10,000 nt of DNA, taken from IMG/VR virus record IMGVR_UViG_2690316285_000012; one strand, written 5' to 3'. The DNA comes from a virus (taxonomy: Duplodnaviria > Heunggongvirae > Uroviricota > Caudoviricetes). The stretch's first letter is position 1. Every line of letters begins with the position of its first letter. The notes beneath the pieces were generated by a model that made no database searches, had not been told where the DNA came from, and saw only the letters and a list, made by a program, of their open reading frames with translations. A program made the position numbers and the translations under genes. Positions 1-10,000 of the stretch are shown here, one piece after another.

Positions 1-113
1 TACACTAAATCAGTAAGTTGGCAGCATCACCCCGCCACAGAACAATTATTGCTTTTGCCGTTGATGACAATAAAGTTTTTATCGCAGAGGGCGTGGCGGA
101 TATCAAACTTTGG

Positions 114-748
114 TCATTTTCTCTGGCTGATCTTTACCGGATAACCATCCCGAAGATCAATTAAGTGCTCCGGTTCAGAAGCAAACCATGCATAAGATCC
201 CCACGCCAATTCTGGTATTGCCTTTTTAAAAGGCAGAGCACTTCTGTCCATAAATGCCGTAAGGAATGCAAGATTTTTCTCGCTGAACCCAGCGTCAATA
301 GCCAAATGAGTGAGAGTAACTTTTCGTTCCCTGTTTATAGGCCCATCTGTCGCAACTACTTCAGTGAAAACTACAAGCATGTCCGAACCCGTTCGGTCCT
401 CTCCCAAATCAATCAAAATAATATCTGGAAGTGCTTTTGAGGCATCAATATTCAGCCCCAATGCTTTTGCCAATACATCATCCTGAGCAACAACTTTATT
501 CCCGGATTCAGACAACCAGAGCACAGTTGGATTCTTAAGAAAATTAGGAGCAAAAACTTCGATGACGGCCTTAGCTATTGTACTTGACGGGCCCGGAGCT
601 AAAGTTCTCTTCTCTCCATTTGGGAAAGTGACGACTACGACATCAGCAGCAATCACTGCCCCTGATTTCAATAAACGCAACCTAGCAAGAGCGGCTTTGT
701 TCAAATGATTTTCTTGCCAGGAACTTATTGCACTCAGCAGCGAATCTC
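114..748 (-). CDS. Putative type II restriction endonuclease, C-terminal portion (BsuBI/PstI-like candidate); 5' end lies in masked block
   Basis: ORF-track ORF 114..704 (TTG start) is open upstream to the mask at 748. Sits directly downstream and co-directional with the MTase. Has an acidic PD...D/E-type stretch (LPDIILIDLGEDRTG...VVFTEVV). Family assignment is from memory of motif patterns, not a search. Confidence 0.5.
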
Positions 749-749
749 C

Positions 750-1187
750 NNNNNNNNNNNNNNNNNNNNNNNNNNNNNNNNNNNNNNNNNNNNNNNNNNN
801 NNNNNNNNNNNNNNNNNNNNNNNNNNNNNNNNNNNNNNNNNNNNNNNNNNNNNNNNNNNNNNNNNNNNNNNNNNNNNNNNNNNNNNNNNNNNNNNNNNNN
901 NNNNNNNNNNNNNNNNNNNNNNNNNNNNNNNNNNNNNNNNNNNNNNNNNNNNNNNNNNNNNNNNNNNNNNNNNNNNNNNNNNNNNNNNNNNNNNNNNNNN
1001 NNNNNNNNNNNNNNNNNNNNNNNNNNNNNNNNNNNNNNNNNNNNNNNNNNNNNNNNNNNNNNNNNNNNNNNNNNNNNNNNNNNNNNNNNNNNNNNNNNNN
1101 NNNNNNNNNNNNNNNNNNNNNNNNNNNNNNNNNNNNNNNNNNNNNNNNNNNNNNNNNNNNNNNNNNNNNNNNNNNNNNNNNNNNNNN
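750..1187. other. N-masked block (438 nt); further blocks at 1459-1728, 2591-3258, 5302-5714, 5885-6180
   Basis: Runs of n in the sequence. Any ORF segment shown as X in the track is unknown sequence. Confidence 1.
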
Positions 1188-1359
1188 TGGGCCTTATCCA
1201 TCGCCCCAGCCCCTCAACCGCACCAGCATAAAACATGACAAAAATTGTTTTTGCAGCTATTTCCCGAATTAAATATCCACGATTCTCAGTCCCTTCAGGG
1301 AAAATTAATTGTAATCTTTCCCGGATAACATTCAATGGGGGAACAACAGGCAGATTCAT
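1188..1359 (-). CDS. 5' portion of the restriction endonuclease gene, or a separate small gene; continues into masked block
   Basis: ATG at 1359, 63 nt downstream of the MTase stop; visible 57 codons MNLPVVPPLNVIRERLQLIFPEGTENRGYLIREIAAKTIFVMFYAGAVEG... Frame is offset by one relative to the 114..748 ORF. Confidence 0.4.
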
Positions 1360-1422
1360 GCAATCATCACTCCATAGAAACCAGCGATAGTTCTCTCAAT
1401 AATCCGTCTGTGGACGCCAGCA

Positions 1423-3450
1423 TCAATTAACGATTGAATCTCCATCACCTGCTCCAGANNNNNNNNNNNNNNNNNNNNNNNNNNNNNNNNNNNNNNNNNN
1501 NNNNNNNNNNNNNNNNNNNNNNNNNNNNNNNNNNNNNNNNNNNNNNNNNNNNNNNNNNNNNNNNNNNNNNNNNNNNNNNNNNNNNNNNNNNNNNNNNNNN
1601 NNNNNNNNNNNNNNNNNNNNNNNNNNNNNNNNNNNNNNNNNNNNNNNNNNNNNNNNNNNNNNNNNNNNNNNNNNNNNNNNNNNNNNNNNNNNNNNNNNNN
1701 NNNNNNNNNNNNNNNNNNNNNNNNNNNNCTGAGGTAAAATTGCCGCTAAAATCCTTCTGTCCTGTTCCTTCGATGTTGTCCGCTGAACAAGCACACATTC
1801 AGATTTTGTCACAAGGAAACCCTGTTGTGGGGTTATATCGATATAGGGAACATGATTTTTTCTGTCTGCACTAAAACGAAAACCAGCTGAAGTTATTGAT
1901 TCCGCCCAGACTAATGGGTAGCTATTTTTTCCTTTCGTCGTACGCAACTGCGACTTAAATCGATTCCAGACTAACTGACCTGTAGAGACTGAGTATCCCA
2001 GATCAGCTAAACGCGTAGACATCTGTTTTAATACATTAAGAAAACAGGCATCATCTTTAACGCGTGGCAAAAGCCACGTTGCTCCACCTTTTTCTATATC
2101 AACATTACCTATTTTCTCAATTTTTGCTTTGTTCAACCCCTTAGGGACAAGTGAGGATACCTGGGCCCGAACTTTATGTTCTCCCGCCTTGAATGCTGTC
2201 AACATTGTTTCCTGGAGAACATCGTCAAAGACCCCATCCCTGTCAGTGACGAAATCAAGGGCATACGGAGTAGTTTTTTCGGTCAAAAGGGTTCGCAGCG
2301 CGGTGAAATACTGCCCACCAAGAAAAGAAGTTGGCGTAAGAAATGCAATAACTCCTGTTTTCTCTTTAACCATGCGAACAGCTAAGTCGGTGAACAATCC
2401 ATATAGATTTGCATGACCAAATAACGAACGAGAATATTTTTCTCTCGTTTTAATATCGAGAGTGACACGTCCGTAAGGCGGATTCCCTACCACAAGATCA
2501 TAACCAGAAAATTTATCTTGCTGAAGCGCATCAGCAACAATAATTGTATCTTCAGGCAATCTACGTTTTACCTTTACACATAGTGGCATTNNNNNNNNNN
2601 NNNNNNNNNNNNNNNNNNNNNNNNNNNNNNNNNNNNNNNNNNNNNNNNNNNNNNNNNNNNNNNNNNNNNNNNNNNNNNNNNNNNNNNNNNNNNNNNNNNN
2701 NNNNNNNNNNNNNNNNNNNNNNNNNNNNNNNNNNNNNNNNNNNNNNNNNNNNNNNNNNNNNNNNNNNNNNNNNNNNNNNNNNNNNNNNNNNNNNNNNNNN
2801 NNNNNNNNNNNNNNNNNNNNNNNNNNNNNNNNNNNNNNNNNNNNNNNNNNNNNNNNNNNNNNNNNNNNNNNNNNNNNNNNNNNNNNNNNNNNNNNNNNNN
2901 NNNNNNNNNNNNNNNNNNNNNNNNNNNNNNNNNNNNNNNNNNNNNNNNNNNNNNNNNNNNNNNNNNNNNNNNNNNNNNNNNNNNNNNNNNNNNNNNNNNN
3001 NNNNNNNNNNNNNNNNNNNNNNNNNNNNNNNNNNNNNNNNNNNNNNNNNNNNNNNNNNNNNNNNNNNNNNNNNNNNNNNNNNNNNNNNNNNNNNNNNNNN
3101 NNNNNNNNNNNNNNNNNNNNNNNNNNNNNNNNNNNNNNNNNNNNNNNNNNNNNNNNNNNNNNNNNNNNNNNNNNNNNNNNNNNNNNNNNNNNNNNNNNNN
3201 NNNNNNNNNNNNNNNNNNNNNNNNNNNNNNNNNNNNNNNNNNNNNNNNNNNNNNNNNNTACGATGCTGAAGCAGTATGAGCGGGCATGCATCAACCTTGA
3301 CTGCCCGGTTTTGTAATTGCCCGCATAACCTTTGGCCATGGCTTTACAAGTTTGATATCTTTCCAGATTAGAAAACTCATTATCTGTAAAAAAATCAAAA
3401 TGTTGCACATTCATAATGTAAAATCCTAATGTATCAAACATGCGGGCCAT
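1423..3450 (-). CDS. N6-adenine DNA methyltransferase (gamma-class, Eco57I/TaqI-like) with target-recognition region; long form about 675 aa if continuous through masks
   Basis: Catalytic motif IV DLVVGNPPYG visible at 2460-2490 region. One uninterrupted frame connects the visible segments 3259-3450, 1729-2590 and 1423-1458 across both masks. Region is AT-rich relative to its neighbours. Confidence 0.75.
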   Translation of the reverse strand: MARMFDTLGFYIMNVQHFDFFTDNEFSNLERYQTCKAMAKGYAGNYKTGQSRLMHARSYCFSIVXXXXXXXXXXXXXXXXXXXXXXXXXXXXXXXXXXXXXXXXXXXXXXXXXXXXXXXXXXXXXXXXXXXXXXXXXXXXXXXXXXXXXXXXXXXXXXXXXXXXXXXXXXXXXXXXXXXXXXXXXXXXXXXXXXXXXXXXXXXXXXXXXXXXXXXXXXXXXXXXXXXXXXXXXXXXXXXXXXXXXXXXXXXXXXXXXXXXXXXXXXXXXXXXXXXXXXXXXXXXXXXMPLCVKVKRRLPEDTIIVADALQQDKFSGYDLVVGNPPYGRVTLDIKTREKYSRSLFGHANLYGLFTDLAVRMVKEKTGVIAFLTPTSFLGGQYFTALRTLLTEKTTPYALDFVTDRDGVFDDVLQETMLTAFKAGEHKVRAQVSSLVPKGLNKAKIEKIGNVDIEKGGATWLLPRVKDDACFLNVLKQMSTRLADLGYSVSTGQLVWNRFKSQLRTTKGKNSYPLVWAESITSAGFRFSADRKNHVPYIDITPQQGFLVTKSECVLVQRTTSKEQDRRILAAILPQXXXXXXXXXXXXXXXXXXXXXXXXXXXXXXXXXXXXXXXXXXXXXXXXXXXXXXXXXXXXXXXXXXXXXXXXXXXXXXXXXXXXXXXXXXSGAGDGDSIVN

Positions 3451-3664
3451 AACATCTCATGGTGGCGCATAGCAAACTGGCCCGAAGAATATCACGCACC
3501 AAGTCGATCTCATAACCCGTTATGACAATAAATCTTTGTAGCTGAACTCACTTGGTGATTTGTCAATCATTCCTGGCCTCCAGTTCGTCCTGAATCTCTT
3601 TATCGAGTTCACCGTATTTGTTAGTCCTCATCACTCACGACTTGACTTCCAGAAATAACCTTGA

Positions 3665-4021
3665 TTATTCGGGGCTATATTTTGTCACCCTGCGTATCCG
3701 CGCTTTCGCATTACGCTCAATCTGGATTAGCTTTTCTATATTTTTTCGCCTTTCCCGCTCCTCCTGGCGCAAGAGCCTTACATCATCTGCCAGTCTGGTT
3801 TCTCTTTTCGCCACAGAGAGCATCCAGTCAAATGGCTCCACAACTGCACCGCAAATTTTACAGCGGACCTGACGCTCTTTTTCGTCAACCCGGACAGAGG
3901 CGTGATGGCAATATGGTCTTTCCGATGGCTCATAAAGAAAATTAACCTGATTACGAGGGTTATCCTCTTTTACCGGAAATAAAACAATATTGCTTAACTC
4001 ATCTTCTGGTTTTATTTCCAT
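3665..4021 (-). CDS. Hypothetical phage protein (118 aa) with putative zinc-ribbon (C-H-H...C-x2-C) and basic coiled-coil C-terminus
   Basis: ATG at 4021 preceded by AAAGGAGAGGAGC Shine-Dalgarno. Motif YCHHASV...CKICG; C-terminus rich in R/K/E. Last gene of a compact three-gene block. Confidence 0.55.
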   Translation of the reverse strand: MEIKPEDELSNIVLFPVKEDNPRNQVNFLYEPSERPYCHHASVRVDEKERQVRCKICGAVVEPFDWMLSVAKRETRLADDVRLLRQEERERRKNIEKLIQIERNAKARIRRVTKYSPE

Positions 4022-4078
4022 GCTCCTCTCCTTTGATGCGAATGCCAGCGGTAATTGAAGCCTGATAGCTAATTTCAC

Positions 4079-4501
4079 TCACAGTACCGCCTCCTGAAAA
4101 TCACCCTGATAGAAAGCCGGTACACGCTGCATAACTTCACTCTTCCGGCACTCGCGACAGATTATGTTCTGATGTCTGTCGTAGCGGCGTATTTCTCCGT
4201 CTGGTAATGACCAGATAAGGTCCGGATCAACCACAGATGGTTTCTTCAGCTTTGCCCTCGAGAGTTTTTTGCGGGCGTTTTGCCAGTCCTTACGAGCCTG
4301 TTCAGACGGGAATAACCCGTAGCCAGAGTTGTATACATCCCCACTGGCAACCAGCTCTCTGGCGAGAACGCTTATTAAATATCTTGTCGCCCCGGTTTTA
4401 GCTTCCAGTTGTCGTAACGTCTCGCGCCCACTCTGGCGTACGAGTTCAACAACCTGCCCCTTAATTTTTTCCCGCTCTTCCTGTGTAAATACTTTTGCCA
4501 T
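4079..4501 (-). CDS. Hypothetical phage protein (140 aa) with HTH-like N-terminal segment
   Basis: ATG at 4501 preceded by GGGGG-rich RBS. Upstream gene stop at 4517 and downstream start at 4021 give tight operon packing. Segment ETLRQLEAKTGATRYLISVLAREL resembles a helix-turn-helix. Confidence 0.55.
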   Translation of the reverse strand: MAKVFTQEEREKIKGQVVELVRQSGRETLRQLEAKTGATRYLISVLARELVASGDVYNSGYGLFPSEQARKDWQNARKKLSRAKLKKPSVVDPDLIWSLPDGEIRRYDRHQNIICRECRKSEVMQRVPAFYQGDFQEAVL

Positions 4502-4516
4502 AAGCGCCCCCGGCAA

Positions 4517-5242
4517 TCACTTTTCCGACACAATACGACCGGAGGAATCGACAATCTGTCGAACAATATCCCGGTGCTTGTTCAGCTCCCGCAACGCGGC
4601 GCAGACACGCTCCCACTTCTGGACATGACTTTTCGCCCGACGCAGTTCGCGGTTTGCCATATGCAGCGATGGTAAAACCAGGTCATCCGCTTGCGTTTCG
4701 GTGAACGATGGCAACGACTGCACAATGTCCGCCACAGTTTCTGTTTTAATTTCTTCCTGTGTTGCAGCTTCCTGTACCGGTAACGCAACACCTGCTGGCT
4801 GAGGAAAGACTTTACCATCCGTTTCCGCTATGGATGCGGCTTTCGGCTCTGCCGGTAAATCAGCGCCCGGTATGCAGTACCGAAATTTACCGCCCTGATT
4901 CACGCGAATCAGACGCCCTTTGCTGATTGCCATGGCCAGCGATGAATTCGCCCGGCGGGAGGTAATCCCGAACATCAGTGCCAGCTCATCCGCCGTTTGT
5001 GGGCCATGTTGTTCAATCGCCTCAGTCAGCATTTGCGCTGTCACTTTCGGTACCGGTGACACTGGTTCACTTTCACCAGCCTGAATCAGCCACCACATCG
5101 AACCCTTGTTATCCGCTTCACCACGGCGCTTCAGTTTCCACAGTTCGTTGACCGCATCTTCACGGCTGATTCCAAGGCGGGACGCCACCACATGTGAAGA
5201 GGCTCTTTTCAGTGCTTTCAGTGCGTCAAATACAGTTTCCAT
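4517..5242 (-). CDS. Hypothetical phage protein (241 aa), two predicted winged-helix-like segments
   Basis: ATG at 5242 with GGAGG 8 nt upstream (ORF-track TTG start at 5260 also possible). Starts about 27 nt after the DnaC-like stop. GC-rich like the replication genes. Confidence 0.6.
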
Positions 5243-5268
5243 TAAAACATCCTCCAACAAAAATTACT

Positions 5269-5884
5269 TCACAACTCCCGGAAAGCTGACATTTGAACGC
5301 CNNNNNNNNNNNNNNNNNNNNNNNNNNNNNNNNNNNNNNNNNNNNNNNNNNNNNNNNNNNNNNNNNNNNNNNNNNNNNNNNNNNNNNNNNNNNNNNNNNN
5401 NNNNNNNNNNNNNNNNNNNNNNNNNNNNNNNNNNNNNNNNNNNNNNNNNNNNNNNNNNNNNNNNNNNNNNNNNNNNNNNNNNNNNNNNNNNNNNNNNNNN
5501 NNNNNNNNNNNNNNNNNNNNNNNNNNNNNNNNNNNNNNNNNNNNNNNNNNNNNNNNNNNNNNNNNNNNNNNNNNNNNNNNNNNNNNNNNNNNNNNNNNNN
5601 NNNNNNNNNNNNNNNNNNNNNNNNNNNNNNNNNNNNNNNNNNNNNNNNNNNNNNNNNNNNNNNNNNNNNNNNNNNNNNNNNNNNNNNNNNNNNNNNNNNN
5701 NNNNNNNNNNNNNNTACCCATCGCCGCTGCAAGGTGATTTTTCCCGGTGCCGGTTTTACCGCTGAACACAAAATTCGTGCACCCGGTCATCAGTTCGTCA
5801 GCTATGGATTTGGCCTGGCTCAGCGCGTATTTTTGCCCGTCGTTCTGCACCTGATAATTCGCAAACGAGCATTTGCTGTGCAGA
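5269..5884 (-). CDS. DnaC-family AAA+ helicase loader (phage P-analog / YdaV-like); 5' end in masked block
   Basis: Visible stretch KCSFANYQVQNDGQKYALSQAKSIADELMTGCTNFVFSGKTGTGKNHLAAAMG closely parallels the E. coli DnaC Walker A region (FSGKPGTGKNHLAAA). Frame stays open upstream into mask 5885-6180; same frame ends at 5269 after mask 5302-5714. Confidence 0.75.
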
Positions 5885-6180
5885 NNNNNNNNNNNNNNNN
5901 NNNNNNNNNNNNNNNNNNNNNNNNNNNNNNNNNNNNNNNNNNNNNNNNNNNNNNNNNNNNNNNNNNNNNNNNNNNNNNNNNNNNNNNNNNNNNNNNNNNN
6001 NNNNNNNNNNNNNNNNNNNNNNNNNNNNNNNNNNNNNNNNNNNNNNNNNNNNNNNNNNNNNNNNNNNNNNNNNNNNNNNNNNNNNNNNNNNNNNNNNNNN
6101 NNNNNNNNNNNNNNNNNNNNNNNNNNNNNNNNNNNNNNNNNNNNNNNNNNNNNNNNNNNNNNNNNNNNNNNNNNNNNNNN

Positions 6181-7157
6181 AACCAGGGGTTTTCAAAATT
6201 CCGGTCCGGCCCAAAAAACGTCGTCGCTCGCTGAACAAATTCCGTTCCCGCTTTCCCGGTCGCCGCCAGGTATCTCGCGTAACGCCTCACACCATCCAGC
6301 ATGGTCTCTGGTGGCACCCCCTCGCGCAATCTGGCCTTCCAGGCACTGAATGCGGATTTCTTCGGGTTTGCCCCGGCACGCAACGGGTATTCCCGCCAGA
6401 CCTGTTCGAACACATCCGGATAATCCACTCGTCCCACAGGCTGCCCGGTGTTTTCCGGGGCTACCCGATCGGCTTCCCGCTGAATGGCGGAATCGGCTTC
6501 AGGCTGCTGCAGTTGGAGTGATTGCTCCGGCCTTGCGGTCATCACCTGCTGCACAGCGCCCGAATCGGCTTTCAGCGCATACGCTGAATCGGCTTCCGGT
6601 GTCGAGCCTGCTGGCTGACCAGGATTGACGGTCTGAACATCCCCTGCCTGGTTCGTGGCGTTTTTTACGCCATGGACCATAGTGTTTTGATCTTCTTTAT
6701 CTGTATCTTTATCTGTATCTGTCGTGACTCGTCGTGACATGTGCGTGACATTTCGTGACGCGCCGTGACAATCGCCATTTTGTTCCCGCTTTCTTTCCCT
6801 CTCTCGCTGCGCCCTCTTGCGCTCTGCAGGAGATTTTGCGGTTTGCGAAATATTGCCGTTGTCCTCTTTAAGCACCTGGCGTTTTTCCCATCCAGTGATT
6901 AAATCACCATCAAGTACCCGCCCCTGCATCGTCTGCAAAATTGAATCAATTACCTCTTCTGTCACGTCGAGCGCACTTGCCAAATCTTCTGTCGTGACAT
7001 CAATGTGACCTCGCGTGACATTTCGTGACGCGCTCACCAGGAGGTGGATATACACTGCCATCACTGTTGCAATTGGCTGCCCTGACACCCTGGCAATTGT
7101 TCGCCACTTAGGGTCATTTGGCATGTCATGCCATAATCTGAGCCAGGCGTTAGCCAT
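6181..7157 (-). CDS. Phage replication initiator / replisome organizer (lambda O analog); 3' end in masked block
   Basis: ATG at 7157 preceded by GAGGTGA RBS (ORF-track GTG at 7163). N-terminal HTH-like region MANAWLRLWHDMPNDPKWRTIARVSGQPIATV. Iteron repeats lie inside the gene and it sits immediately upstream of the DnaC-like gene. Confidence 0.7.
6694..6717. repeat. Perfect tandem duplication of 12-bp unit TCTTTATCTGTA (AT-rich), adjacent to the iterons
   Basis: 6694-6705 and 6706-6717 are identical. Encodes the low-complexity TDKDTDKD linker of the initiator on the minus strand. Confidence 0.7.
6721..6769. repeat. Iteron cluster 1: five CGTGAC repeats at roughly 10-11 bp spacing (putative origin)
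   Basis: CGTGAC at 6723, 6733, 6744, 6754, 6764, about one helical turn apart, flanked by the AT-rich tandem repeat at 6694-6717. Confidence 0.6.
6961..7033. repeat. Iteron cluster 2: four (C/T)GTGAC repeats at 10-11 bp spacing plus one inverted copy
   Basis: CGTGAC/TGTGAC at 6993, 7004, 7014, 7024; inverted GTCACG at 6961-6966. The 21-mer GCGTGACATTTCGTGACGCGC at 7013-7033 is identical to 6743-6763. Confidence 0.6.
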
Positions 7158-7228
7158 ACTCACCTCTTCTGATACCGAATCTTTTTACTCACGAGTTGCC
7201 GGGAGCGATTCGATATGGCTATTGTCAG

Positions 7229-7654
7229 TCAATGTACTGCCACAGCATTTCCTGCCGGGCCACCACGGTTCATCTGATTGAAACCGGCGATTGCCACTGC
7301 GACAAAATCATCAGCGTCTCTCACCAGTCGTTCATGCGTCTCCACCAGTTCCCGAAAATAAGCTGAACTGTGGCTGCGCATTCGAGCCACCAGCGGAGGT
7401 GGCATTGCCCTTTCGATCGCAGGTAACAACGCCTGAATTTTTTCAACAGCGTCAGGGGTGTCTTTATCCAGCCAACGGAAAATCTTTTGGGTGTTGAGAT
7501 AAAGCGTGTTGTGCTTGCTGTCGTTATGCAGAACCGGAAACGTCATTCCCAGTTCGAAATAAACCCTGGTTATTTCAGCTGCCGGAACTTTTTCACCGTC
7601 CGGATGCGCCCAGGCTTTCATCGCCATGCGGATGTGTTCATGCTTGATTTTCAT
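7229..7654 (-). CDS. ydaT: YdaT-like protein (proposed cII analog / toxic prophage regulator), 141 aa
   Basis: ATG at 7654 overlaps the upstream gene stop (ATGA). N-terminus MKIKHEHI and the size match recalled Rac YdaT. Position is Cro-like gene, then this gene, then replication genes. Confidence 0.65.
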   Translation of the reverse strand: MKIKHEHIRMAMKAWAHPDGEKVPAAEITRVYFELGMTFPVLHNDSKHNTLYLNTQKIFRWLDKDTPDAVEKIQALLPAIERAMPPPLVARMRSHSSAYFRELVETHERLVRDADDFVAVAIAGFNQMNRGGPAGNAVAVH

Positions 7655-7914
7655 GAATCAACCCCCGCCGATGGTTGTGTGTTAGCCTGAAACTCAGCAG
7701 GCAAGCCGTCAGTTGGGTTGGGGTAGGTTTTACTGTCAATCTCATGTGGGGTCACCACCCATCCCGTTGCTTCACACCAACGTAATATTTTTTCTCCTGT
7801 AAGTTTTGCACGCCCCGTTATAACGTGGCTGACCATCCCTTGGGATGCGCCAACAATCTCAGCAAATGAACTCTGGGTTATATGAAAATGATGCAAATAT
7901 TCTCCAAGATTCAT
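7651..7914 (-). CDS. ydaS: Cro-like HTH protein (YdaS-like), 87 aa from ATG 7914
   Basis: HTH segment SSFAEIVGASQGMVSHVITGRAKLTGEKI. Divergent from the repressor gene and first gene of the rightward operon. ATG 7914 has an AGGGCGG RBS; ORF-track TTG start at 7941 is the alternative. Symbol assigned by synteny with Rac. Confidence 0.6.
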   Translation of the reverse strand: MNLGEYLHHFHITQSSFAEIVGASQGMVSHVITGRAKLTGEKILRWCEATGWVVTPHEIDSKTYPNPTDGLPAEFQANTQPSAGVDS

Positions 7915-7948
7915 AATCCGCCCTATGTGATGTGTTACCAATGCATAA

Positions 7949-8545: not shown

Positions 8546-8740
8546 ATGAGTACAGTCCTTTCCCCAATGGTTTCAGAATTTGAGACAGTTGAGCAAGAAA
8601 ATAGTTACAACGAATGGCTGCGGGCCAAAGTAGCAGCAAGCCTCGCGGATCCCCGCCCGGCGATTCCGCATGATGAGGTAATGGCGGAAATGGAACAAAT
8701 TATTGCCCAAATTGCTGCTGCAACTCACAGAGGTGAATAA
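8546..8740 (+). CDS. paaA2: Small antitoxin (PaaA2/ParD-like), 64 aa
   Basis: GAGGAG RBS 9 nt upstream. Stop TAA overlaps the toxin ATG (TAATG). Small acidic protein immediately upstream of a ParE-family toxin. Symbol by architecture and size. Confidence 0.6.
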   Translation: MSTVLSPMVSEFETVEQENSYNEWLRAKVAASLADPRPAIPHDEVMAEMEQIIAQIAAATHRGE

Positions 8741-9030
8741 TGTTACCCGTTTTATGGCTACCATCTGCTCGTGATGATTTGCGCCAGATCGTAGCCTACA
8801 TAGCTAAAGAAAATCCCGCGGCAGCACGCAGAATGAAAATTCGAATTGAAACATCCGTTTTGCCGCTCACAGAGCATCCTTACCTGTATCCTCCAAGCGA
8901 GCGAGTTCTTGGTCTTCGTGAAATTGTAACTCATCCTAACTACATCATCCTTTACCGAGTAACAGCATCAAGCATAGAAGTAGTAAATATTGTGCATTCT
9001 CGAAGACAGTATCCAGGCAAAAACAGTTAA
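8740..9030 (+). CDS. parE2: ParE/RelE-superfamily toxin, 96 aa
   Basis: Typical ParE pattern: W...A..DL..I..YIA.ENPAAA.R....I, then YIILYRV and VVNIVH near the C-terminus. Translationally coupled to the upstream antitoxin. Confidence 0.75.
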   Translation: MLPVLWLPSARDDLRQIVAYIAKENPAAARRMKIRIETSVLPLTEHPYLYPPSERVLGLREIVTHPNYIILYRVTASSIEVVNIVHSRRQYPGKNS

Positions 9031-9838: not shown

Positions 9839-10000
9839 TCCCTGCGTCCTCTAAGCTTTTGATATAGCGGTCCTCCAAGAAGCGGTAAATTTTGTCGAAA
9901 TCATCTTTTCCCTCTGGTTTATTCAGAGGATTACAGGACCCGTAAGTAGCGGCATACATTTCAACCGTTTGGTAATGACTCCAACTTATTGATAGTGTTT
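9807..10000 (-). CDS. Partial hypothetical CDS entering from the right edge (3' end only)
   Basis: Minus-strand frame is open from the window edge to TGA at 9807-9809 (at least 64 codons, ...EMYAATYGSCNPLNKPEGKDDFDKIYRFLEDRYIKSLEDAG...). Overlaps the 3' end of the plus-strand ORF by 32 nt. Not in the ORF track because the in-window ATG-to-stop span is only 50 aa. Confidence 0.3.
   Translation of the reverse strand, partial: TLSISWSHYQTVEMYAATYGSCNPLNKPEGKDDFDKIYRFLEDRYIKSLEDAGIKSPVKSPLS

Follow-up and report, generated by a model that had tools for sequence, protein, structure and literature searches.

EcoGIII is a PstI-like Type II restriction-modification (R-M) system of Stx2 prophages, which recognizes CTGCAG. 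It is phage-borne and restricts other lambdoid phages (PMC6602927, PMC3893438), the EcoGIII-type enzyme is biochemically active (PMC3893438), and the methyltransferase M.EcoGIII alters the expression of many host genes (PMC6602927). For P2 prophages, a defence hotspot in the gpA-gpQ interval has been documented (PMC9122126).

The locus described here lies on the minus strand of the window, i.e., the whole stretch of 10,000 nucleotides that was analysed. The window copy comes from Shigella sonnei, from a lambdoid prophage at the Qin site that was cut down by IS1. With a probability of about 0.85, the region from about 109 to 3650 represents a self-contained Type II (IIP-like) R-M cassette, which consists of a leader, a methyltransferase (MTase) gene and a gene for a restriction endonuclease (REase) of the BsuBI/PstI family (Table 1). 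The identity of the genes, the operon architecture, the status as cargo, the boundaries, the composition and purifying selection are established parts of this reading.

The cassette and EcoGIII are both two-gene operons in lambdoid prophages with the MTase gene preceding the REase gene. The REases agree in their two Pfam domains and in the motif variant PD..E.V..GP, and the MTases are homologous over the catalytic and the C-terminal target-recognition regions. However, both proteins of the cassette are only 24-27% identical to their EcoGIII counterparts, and both are larger (MTase 598-610 versus 489 aa, with about 110 additional N-terminal residues; REase 360 versus 317 aa). In addition, EcoGIII is located in the immunity region directly downstream of cI, the LexA-family repressor gene, whereas the cassette follows the replication genes, on the side of pR. 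The low identity and the different position rule out that the cassette is an EcoGIII orthologue. With PstI, BsuBI and SdaI the REase shares the combination of an N-terminal HTH recognition domain and a C-terminal nuclease domain (PF06616 and PF17728), but it belongs to a distinct subfamily.

Table 1. Features of the cassette and its surroundings in window coordinates
Feature	Position	Strand	Basis
Terminal 31 bp of the 768-bp IS1 copy that truncates the prophage	1..31	-	InsA/InsB Pfam domains in adjoining gene, S. sonnei genomes L005-L010
Convergent parE toxin gene fragment, cut by IS1	32..87	+	Aligns with 12001-12056 of intact relative L001, inside ParE (11801-12112)
Left-hand cargo boundary, 5 bp beyond the REase stop	109..113	-	End of Kluyvera homology
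Restriction endonuclease gene, BsuBI/PstI family	114..1359	-	Pfam, PADLOC, motif conservation
DNA N6-adenine methyltransferase gene, gamma class	1356..3450	-	Pfam, PADLOC, NPPY
Cassette-borne 5' leader, putative promoter region	3451..3573	-	Conservation with the cassette
Backbone/cassette junction zone, right-hand cargo boundary	3574..3650	-	Homology breakpoints
Second IS1 copy, first 31 bp, same orientation, bounds the other end of the remnant	9970..10000	-	

The two enzymes and their joint inheritance

The preliminary description proposed an MTase and a putative REase, and both assignments were corroborated by domain content and by full-length PADLOC Type II matches. In unmasked copies the REase has 360 aa. 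Its C-terminal PD...E nuclease domain (PF06616, E = 9e-45) and its N-terminal HTH recognition domain (PF17728, E = 1e-30) score 152 and 107 bits, respectively, at a gathering cutoff of 27, and PADLOC assigns the protein to REase_II (PDLC03589, E = 3e-128). The residues P257-D258 (window 423-428) and E279 (360-362) are all visible in the window, and thus the REase carries both domains and the active-site residues that define the BsuBI/PstI family. The PD..E.V..GP motif is invariant within the subfamily, which is well populated (3,724 proteins at E <= 1e-10; 463 species-level genome matches). Among solved structures, SdaI (2ixs, E = 2e-16) is closest to the REase, and no model for the REase was found among the NCBIfam profiles. 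SdaI contains a lysine (K251) in the sequence 'EAVK'; at this position the cassette REase has an alanine and EcoGIII-type enzymes have a threonine. The lack of this lysine does not indicate an inactive nuclease, because the active EcoGIII-type enzyme likewise does without it (PMC3893438).

The recognition sequence considered for the BsuBI/PstI family was CTGCAG or its superset CCTGCAGG. CTGCAG does not occur in the 3.1-kb cassette, which is not significant, and the numbers of CTGCAG, CCTGCAGG and ATGCAT sites are too small to serve as a clue to specificity. The enzymes of the cassette share only 24-27% identity with enzymes of known specificity.

The MTase has 610 aa if translation starts at the ATG at 3450, or 598 aa if it starts at the ATG at 3414. 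The latter start is more likely; homology to more distant cassettes begins at aa 12-13. The catalytic motif IV, NPPY, is located at 2473-2484. The SAM motif I, DPACGGGAF, falls into an N run of the window and is present, within a 100%-identical flanking context, in the S. sonnei genome L005 and in L001, so that the protein is a stand-alone MTase with both motifs. It matches the Pfam domains of Eco57I-type MTases (E = 2e-13) and N6_Mtase (E = 2e-9) and, over its full length, the PADLOC family MTase_II (PDLC03338, E = 2e-300); the best PDB match is the TaqI MTase. A fused Type IIG enzyme similar to Eco57I was ruled out, because the Eco57I profile is matched in the MTase part only (positions 69-165 of 171), and so was BREX PglX, because the scores with the NCBIfam models for PglX, MADS and Alw26I (17-78 bits) are far below the cutoffs (353-900). 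A Type I R-M system was ruled out as well, because HsdS and HsdR genes are absent from every context examined. The MTase shares the gamma-class N6-adenine MTase fold with Type I HsdM and has weak matches to HsdM structures, but it has no adjacent hsdS or hsdR gene and its partner is a Type II nuclease of the PstI family. The RefSeq product name, Type I HsdM, reflects the fold class and not the type of system.

Among 105 loci from several phyla, 104 have the MTase gene directly upstream of the REase gene and in the same orientation, and the identities of both proteins decrease in parallel across the compared loci. The REase is thus encoded by a separate gene that adjoins the MTase gene and is inherited together with it, as is typical of Type II systems. 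The stop codon of the MTase gene and the start codon of the REase gene overlap by 4 bp (ATGA, 1356-1359). The dN/dS values for both genes are 0.05-0.07 in comparisons of the cassettes of Shigella, Kluyvera and Citrobacter, and about 0.06 cassette-wide. Therefore, the cassette is under strong purifying selection.

We infer that the cassette is active in S. sonnei, with a recognition sequence, a promoter, and defence and addiction phenotypes of the following kind; the early expression and the roles in defence and addiction that the preliminary description proposed are likewise putative. The ATGA overlap would allow the MTase to be made first and would couple translation of the REase to it. The methylase would protect a short palindromic site in the DNA of the host and the prophage, possibly a site similar to CTGCAG, as for PstI, BsuBI and EcoGIII, and the endonuclease would cut unmethylated DNA that enters from phages or plasmids. 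If the cassette were lost, the chromosome would be left exposed to residual endonuclease, which would result in post-segregational killing.

Genomic position, boundaries and composition

Intact E. coli relatives have the gene order cro, YdaT, O, P, DUF977, a gene for a protein of 118 aa, MTase, REase, (ParDE), DUF968, RusA, Q. This order between the replication genes and Q, which was seen in L001 and L002, places the cassette at the nin-equivalent position that had been proposed. The same slot holds the same cassette in lambdoid prophages of Kluyvera and Citrobacter, while it is occupied by unrelated small genes in phage 640R1. In P2-like prophages the cassette resides in the gpA-portal defence hotspot, and its neighbours differ among the lambdoid and the P2-like carriers. 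Only 2 of 5,426 complete E. coli genomes contain it, although 4,428 share some part of a query that included the neighbouring backbone genes. A search of plasmids for the cassette yielded none. The genes for the 118-aa protein, DUF977 and DUF1627 are backbone genes that are also present in phages devoid of the R-M pair, and PADLOC retrieved no defence matches for them. The view of the pair as inserted cargo is thus confirmed by its rare carriage, by the differing content of the 640R1 slot and by the homology breakpoints that flank it; nearly all related prophages lack the pair, nor is the composition of the carriers uniform. Its location between replication genes and Q, its variability and its deviant composition are those of lambdoid nin-region morons, and temperate phages carry the cassette as a mobile 'moron'. 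It occupies the very intervals that are variable in prophages, the P2 gpA-gpQ 'old/tin' locus and the nin region, with a foreign composition of its own, does not differ from the known defence cargo of these slots in substance, and represents one more payload.

The boundaries could be defined, as had been suggested, by comparison with other prophages. On the right-hand side, homology to the R-M-less phage 640R1 stops at about 3650 and homology to the Kluyvera cassette begins at about 3573; on the left-hand side, the latter ends at position 14709 of L005, which corresponds to 109 in the window. A spacer of 214 bp (3451-3664) precedes the MTase gene. About 110-200 bp of leader are specific for the cassette, and a conserved core, 'CGGGTTATGAGATCGACTTGGTGCGTGATATTCTT...', starts about 110 nt upstream of the ATG at 3414. 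Shigella, Kluyvera, Citrobacter and IMG/VR lambdoid contigs have conserved this leader along with the cassette, although their upstream genes differ. A scan of the leader for a consensus sigma-70 promoter or a terminator detected none. Manual inspection revealed a TTGACA sequence with bad spacing. The palindrome TCATAAC-GG-GTTATGA (3510-3525) was rejected as an operator, because it coincides with the homology breakpoint and because neither the Citrobacter nor the IMG/VR cassettes conserve the left arm.

In near-identical unmasked S. sonnei genomes, a remnant of 9.5 kb lies between two direct copies of IS1. It contains cI/cro, PaaA2-ParE, the replication (O/P) genes and the R-M pair, and it has no Q, lysis or structural genes. 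A composite transposon was ruled out, because matching target-site duplications are absent. The distance between the REase stop codon and IS1 is 83 bp in the window and 153 bp in relatives, which contain 70 bp that are missing from the window at 87|88; the gap is bounded by a CAGG repeat. In intact relatives parE, the gene cut by IS1 here, adjoins the cassette as part of the backbone. The proposed expression after induction does not apply to the window copy, which is an IS1-truncated remnant and not an inducible prophage. Expression of this copy would require a promoter of the cassette itself or read-through from pR.

Five runs of N interrupt the window (750-1187, 1459-1728, 2591-3258, 5302-5714, 5885-6180). 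The first covers aa 58-149 of the REase, the second and third cover aa 512-577 and 65-224 of the MTase, including motif I, and these three runs are longer than the sequence that they replace (438 versus 275, 270 versus 197 and 668 versus 479 bp). The ORF frames 114..704, 682..1359 and 1423..3450 are therefore artefacts. Similarly, a naive GC profile with values of 0-0.2 is dominated by the masks and was discarded. The window can thus serve as a caution that N masks inflate ORF lengths and feign extreme AT-richness. When GC content was recomputed from non-N bases, it was 42.8% for the cassette (109-3650) and 51.3% for the replication block (3651-7941; chi-square p = 7e-10), a moderate difference of about 8 points. 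GC3 in an unmasked source-type copy was 0.37 for the MTase and 0.36 for the REase gene versus 0.51-0.62 for the O-like, P-like, DUF1627 and DUF977 genes. The comparison of GC content and codon usage called for in the preliminary description thus separates the cassette from the replication genes. The claim that it is more AT-rich than its flanks holds for this side only, because the immunity side with cI/cro/PaaA2-ParE has 45.0% GC and does not differ significantly from the cassette (p = 0.17). The cassette is AT-rich in every host examined, and in L001 no other 3.15-kb segment of the entire prophage has a GC content as low.

Alternative readings and meaning for Shigella sonnei

In the window, N masks hide about 39% of the cassette, and the intactness of this copy is deduced from genomes that are 99.8-100% identical. 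The visible parts of the REase (aa 1-57 and 150-360) and of the MTase are in-frame and open, each with one change compared to L001. Three near-identical S. sonnei genomes, L005, L006 and L008, contain both genes intact and at full length, and proteins of exactly this sequence are encoded by at least 1000 contigs that bear the name Shigella sonnei. These data bear on the view that the cassette is a silent or decaying relic in a dead prophage, in which the REase or both genes are unexpressed or inactive and have been kept by clonal descent only. The truncation of the remnant by IS1 and the loss of Q, lysis and structural genes would fit, as would the leader devoid of a consensus promoter and the lack of a published motif; our search for literature on the methylation motif of S. 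sonnei or the subfamily, and on methylomes, cleavage or expression for the subfamily, found none. S. sonnei is also a recent clone, so that retention in this species is no proof of selection. Furthermore, in the source-type assemblies L007 and L010 the MTase gene is split next to an intact REase gene. However, several unrelated genes are also split in these two assemblies, which suggests sequencing indels or assembly errors. Together with the full-length genes, the intact catalytic motifs, the conserved leader that travels with the cassette and the low cassette-wide dN/dS, this makes a relic unlikely.

It could also be that the MTase provides the selected function, for example by epigenetic regulation or by shielding phage DNA in hosts whose R-M specificity is the same, and that the REase is dispensable or attenuated. 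Phages often carry protective MTases, and the phage-borne relative M.EcoGIII has the effects on host gene expression mentioned above. But the REase gene has been retained beside the MTase gene in all but one of the compared loci under equally strong purifying selection, and the ATGA overlap indicates co-expression; therefore, this possibility is very improbable. The view that the genes are ancestral backbone of the phage lineage and that their low GC content is a masking artefact, for which the masked naive profile and the equally AT-rich immunity region could be quoted, has already been refuted by the carriage count in E. coli, the sharp homology breakpoints and the occurrence in unrelated P2-like phages, and the GC difference persists on non-N bases and in unmasked copies.

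The self-contained R-M cassette is thus an ordinary two-gene anti-phage system, and because its class is already annotated by PADLOC and RefSeq, this result is correct and unsurprising. Beyond its correct annotation the locus matters little. It illustrates cleanly how a defence cassette shuttles among the known variable slots of lambdoid and P2-like prophages and retains its AT-rich composition. If active, the cassette would be a species-wide restriction barrier in S. sonnei, with relevance for phage therapy, the transformation of clinical isolates and the interpretation of the S. sonnei methylome. Three further features may be envisaged. The recognition sequence of this PstI-family subfamily may differ from CTGCAG, the cassette may be regulated by the leader of about 110 nt that travels with it and without a C protein, and the R-M pair may form an addiction module in S. 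sonnei with the neighbouring PaaA2-ParE toxin-antitoxin system. All three combined, with addiction maintaining the 9.5-kb slice, are a tentative and rather doubtful extension. If it were true, the addiction module would explain the survival of just this slice of the Qin-site prophage through IS1-mediated erosion, and the R-M pair could add to the barriers against the entry of phages and plasmids into S. sonnei.

A Type II restriction-modification pair of the PstI family

The methyltransferase of the cassette has a gamma-class domain of the Eco57I/N6_Mtase type, matches the Type II methyltransferase model of PADLOC over its full length (E = 2e-300), and has the TaqI methyltransferase and HsdM structures as its nearest solved relatives. 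Because the protein is conserved across cassettes only from residue 12-13 onward, the ATG at position 3414 is the likelier translation start, which would yield a protein of 598 aa. The stop codon overlaps the start codon of the endonuclease gene in the sequence ATGA (1356-1359). The endonuclease is an end-to-end match to the PADLOC Type II endonuclease model (E = 3e-128), and SdaI is its only solved relative. The catalytic residues P-D...E-x-V...G-P are invariant across its subfamily, while the lysine that SdaI has four residues after the Glu is absent. The missing lysine is not a sign of decay, because it is also absent from the EcoGIII-type enzyme, which is biochemically active (PMC3893438). 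None of HsdS, HsdR, a C protein, or a fused nuclease is present with the pair. The preliminary description had proposed a methyltransferase and a putative endonuclease; the full-length PADLOC matches and the Pfam domains bear this out as a Type II pair, a class already given by RefSeq and PADLOC.

Features of the window discussed in the text
Feature	Position	Strand	Remarks
IS1 ends	1-31 and 9970-10000	same orientation	termini of 768-bp copies
parE fragment	32-87		remainder of second ParD-ParE pair
70-bp gap	87|88		CAGG direct repeat at its bounds
Restriction endonuclease	114-1359	minus	360 aa; both BsuBI/PstI Pfam domains far above threshold
Methyltransferase	1356-3450	minus	610 aa as annotated; NPPY at 2473-2484
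Palindrome	3510-3525	minus	TCATAAC-GG-GTTATGA
22-codon ORF	3562-3630	minus	MRTNKYGELDKEIQDELEARND
CGTGACA repeat clusters	6733-6770 and 6960-7020		inside the O-like replication gene
PaaA2-type antitoxin (64 aa) and ParE toxin (96 aa)	8546-9030	plus	directly downstream of the cI-like repressor

A methyltransferase homolog lies directly upstream of the endonuclease gene in 104 of 105 loci from Proteobacteria, Acidobacteriota, Chloroflexota, Firmicutes, and Bacteroidota, the sole exception being a contig that starts at the endonuclease gene. The identities of both proteins fall in parallel across loci, and dN/dS values were 0.05-0.07 for each of them when the Shigella, Kluyvera, and Citrobacter cassettes were compared.

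The closest characterized system is EcoGIII, the PstI-like CTGCAG system of Stx2 prophages, which remodels transcription in its host and is active in restricting other lambdoid phages (PMC3893438, PMC6602927). Both proteins of the cassette are homologous to those of EcoGIII, but the identity is only 24-27%, and EcoGIII follows cI, whereas the cassette is found in another part of the phage map. Divergence and map position together indicate that the cassette belongs to the PstI family as a distinct member and is not an EcoGIII ortholog. Counts of candidate recognition sites gave no clue to its specificity; the lack of CTGCAG in the 3.1-kb cassette is not significant. No methylome of S. sonnei or of the cassette's close homologs was found in the literature. 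In the Stx phage ArgO145 (L004, 5358-7778) the EcoGIII-type BsuBI-like endonuclease is annotated as frameshifted and the methyltransferase is intact, an example of endonuclease decay that leaves an orphan methyltransferase.

Masked runs and base composition

The window contains five N runs (750-1187, 1459-1728, 2591-3258, 5302-5714, and 5885-6180), and alignment to unmasked, 99.8-100% identical genomes revealed that they exceed the replaced sequence by 5-189 bp (e.g., 438 versus 275 bp, 270 versus 197 bp, and 668 versus 479 bp). These masks distort the GC profile as well as the ORFs: the N runs account for the values of 0.00-0.25 seen when GC is profiled naively, and the ORFs 114..704, 682..1359, and 1423..3450 obtained by mechanical ORF calling were rejected as frame artefacts, because the over-long runs shift the frames. 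The masks also inflate the methyltransferase (675 aa apparent versus 610) and the O-like gene (447 aa apparent versus 354). Gene extents were obtained by threading the visible pieces onto the genes of relatives; all visible codons of the endonuclease and the methyltransferase are open, and each protein differs by a single amino acid.

On non-N bases the GC content of the cassette is 42.8%, versus 51.3% for the early-right/replication block at 3651-7941 (p = 7e-10), and GC3 in an unmasked copy is 0.37 and 0.36 for the methyltransferase and endonuclease genes, versus 0.51-0.62 for the O-like, DnaC-like, DUF1627, and DUF977 genes. No other 3.15-kb stretch of an intact relative's prophage is as low in GC as the cassette, which in every host examined has a GC content of 41-44% and a GC3 of 0.28-0.37. 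It had been described as more AT-rich than the flanking replication and core early genes, which is true for the replication block; from the immunity side of the window (45.0% GC) it does not differ significantly (p = 0.17). The AT-richness is thus real, moderate in size, and one-sided.

The Shigella sonnei remnant and its IS1 ends

The exact protein sequences occur on at least 1000 contigs named Shigella sonnei, and six genomes of 4.8-5.0 Mb match the window at 99.8-100% identity. Both proteins are full length in L005, L006, and L008, and in L009 the methyltransferase ORF is intact and called from the second ATG (598 aa). In L007 (11829-13624) and L010 (11828-13623) the methyltransferase is split into two ORFs beside an intact endonuclease gene, which, if real, would imply an inactive or silent endonuclease. 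Since several unrelated genes (DmsC, ynfF, DnaC-like) are split in these assemblies as well, sequencing indels are more likely.

In these genomes a 9.5-kb prophage remnant, bounded by two IS1 copies, occupies the Qin chromosomal site, where its neighbors are ydfI-ydfZ-ydfH-ydfG at one end and ynfF/G/H-dmsD-clcB at the other. Its gene content comprises a DUF1391 gene, PaaA2-ParE, cI-like, cro-like, YdaT, O-like, DnaC-like, DUF1627, DUF977, and a 118-aa gene, followed by the methyltransferase and endonuclease genes. No matching target-site duplications were found at the two IS1 copies, and the sequence outside the cI-side copy, which begins at 9970, varies between strains. Both observations suggest that IS1 mediated deletions or rearrangements here, and not simple insertions. 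The window's copy of the cassette resides in an IS1-bounded, non-inducible remnant, which with the PaaA2-ParE and restriction-modification pairs retains two potential addiction modules.

A second ParD-ParE pair adjoins the endonuclease gene in intact relatives. The 70 bp that the window lacks, present in every relative (L001, L005-L010), cover 14 bp of spacer as well as the truncated parE fragment's 3' end; either a genuine microhomology deletion or the way the window was prepared may account for the gap. The CGTGACA motif occurs 6 times within about 290 bp, and 7 times in the whole window where 1.7 matches would be expected; the repeats are probably origin iterons.

Cargo position and movement between hotspots

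The same cassette is present, with 99-100% identity, inside full-length lambdoid prophages of two complete E. coli genomes (L001, L002) in the order cro, YdaT, O, P, (DUF4406, Ea22), DUF977, 118-aa gene, methyltransferase, endonuclease, and convergent ParD-ParE, beyond which a hypothetical gene, DUF968, RusA, Q, tRNAs, and lysis genes follow. This slot is the nin-equivalent interval. Of 5,426 complete E. coli genomes, only these 2 carry the cassette, while 4,428 match some part of a query that also covered the neighboring backbone genes; no plasmids carrying it were found. Phage vB_EcoS-640R1, which lacks the restriction-modification pair, shares the backbone as far as 15 bp beyond the 118-aa gene; unrelated small genes, including a hok-like killer, then occupy the slot, and DUF968 follows. 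Gene order and these alternative genes agree with the proposed nin-region cargo downstream of the replication genes. Measured against a Kluyvera prophage, homology of the cassette extends from ~3573 to ~109; it starts at ~3523 for a Citrobacter prophage and at 3414 for a Serratia P2-like prophage. The previously described coordinates, 114-3664, essentially delimit the cassette.

A non-coding leader of ~110 nt accompanies the cassette in all lambdoid contexts, which argues for cassette-borne regulation. Neither a consensus sigma-70 promoter nor an intrinsic terminator was found in the leader scan. With a cI-like repressor encoded in the S. sonnei remnant, expression there would depend on the leader or on leaky read-through from pR. 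The perfect palindrome at the cassette/backbone junction was rejected as an operator, its left arm not being kept in other cassettes. The spacer upstream of the methyltransferase gene also contains a 22-codon ORF.

In Kluyvera and Citrobacter the cassette occupies the same lambdoid slot with other neighbors, namely PerC, phiTE_072, or Ea22 upstream and DinI or a RecA-like gene downstream. In Serratia and about 14 of 25 IMG/VR contigs its place is the gpA-portal interval of P2-like prophages, documented as the old/tin defense hotspot (PMC9122126). Endonuclease identity is 61-76% in these P2-like cassettes (L015, L026-L041), which a DinI-like gene often precedes; in Kluyvera-type lambdoid prophages a DinI gene follows the cassette.

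Judged by sequence and gene order, the view of the cassette as AT-rich, putative Type II restriction-modification cargo downstream of lambdoid prophage replication genes holds. Added to it are the mask distortion, the IS1-bounded S. sonnei remnant, and the distribution described here, by which one cassette shuttles between lambdoid and P2-like hotspots. The cassette fits the well-described pattern of defense genes in prophage hotspots.
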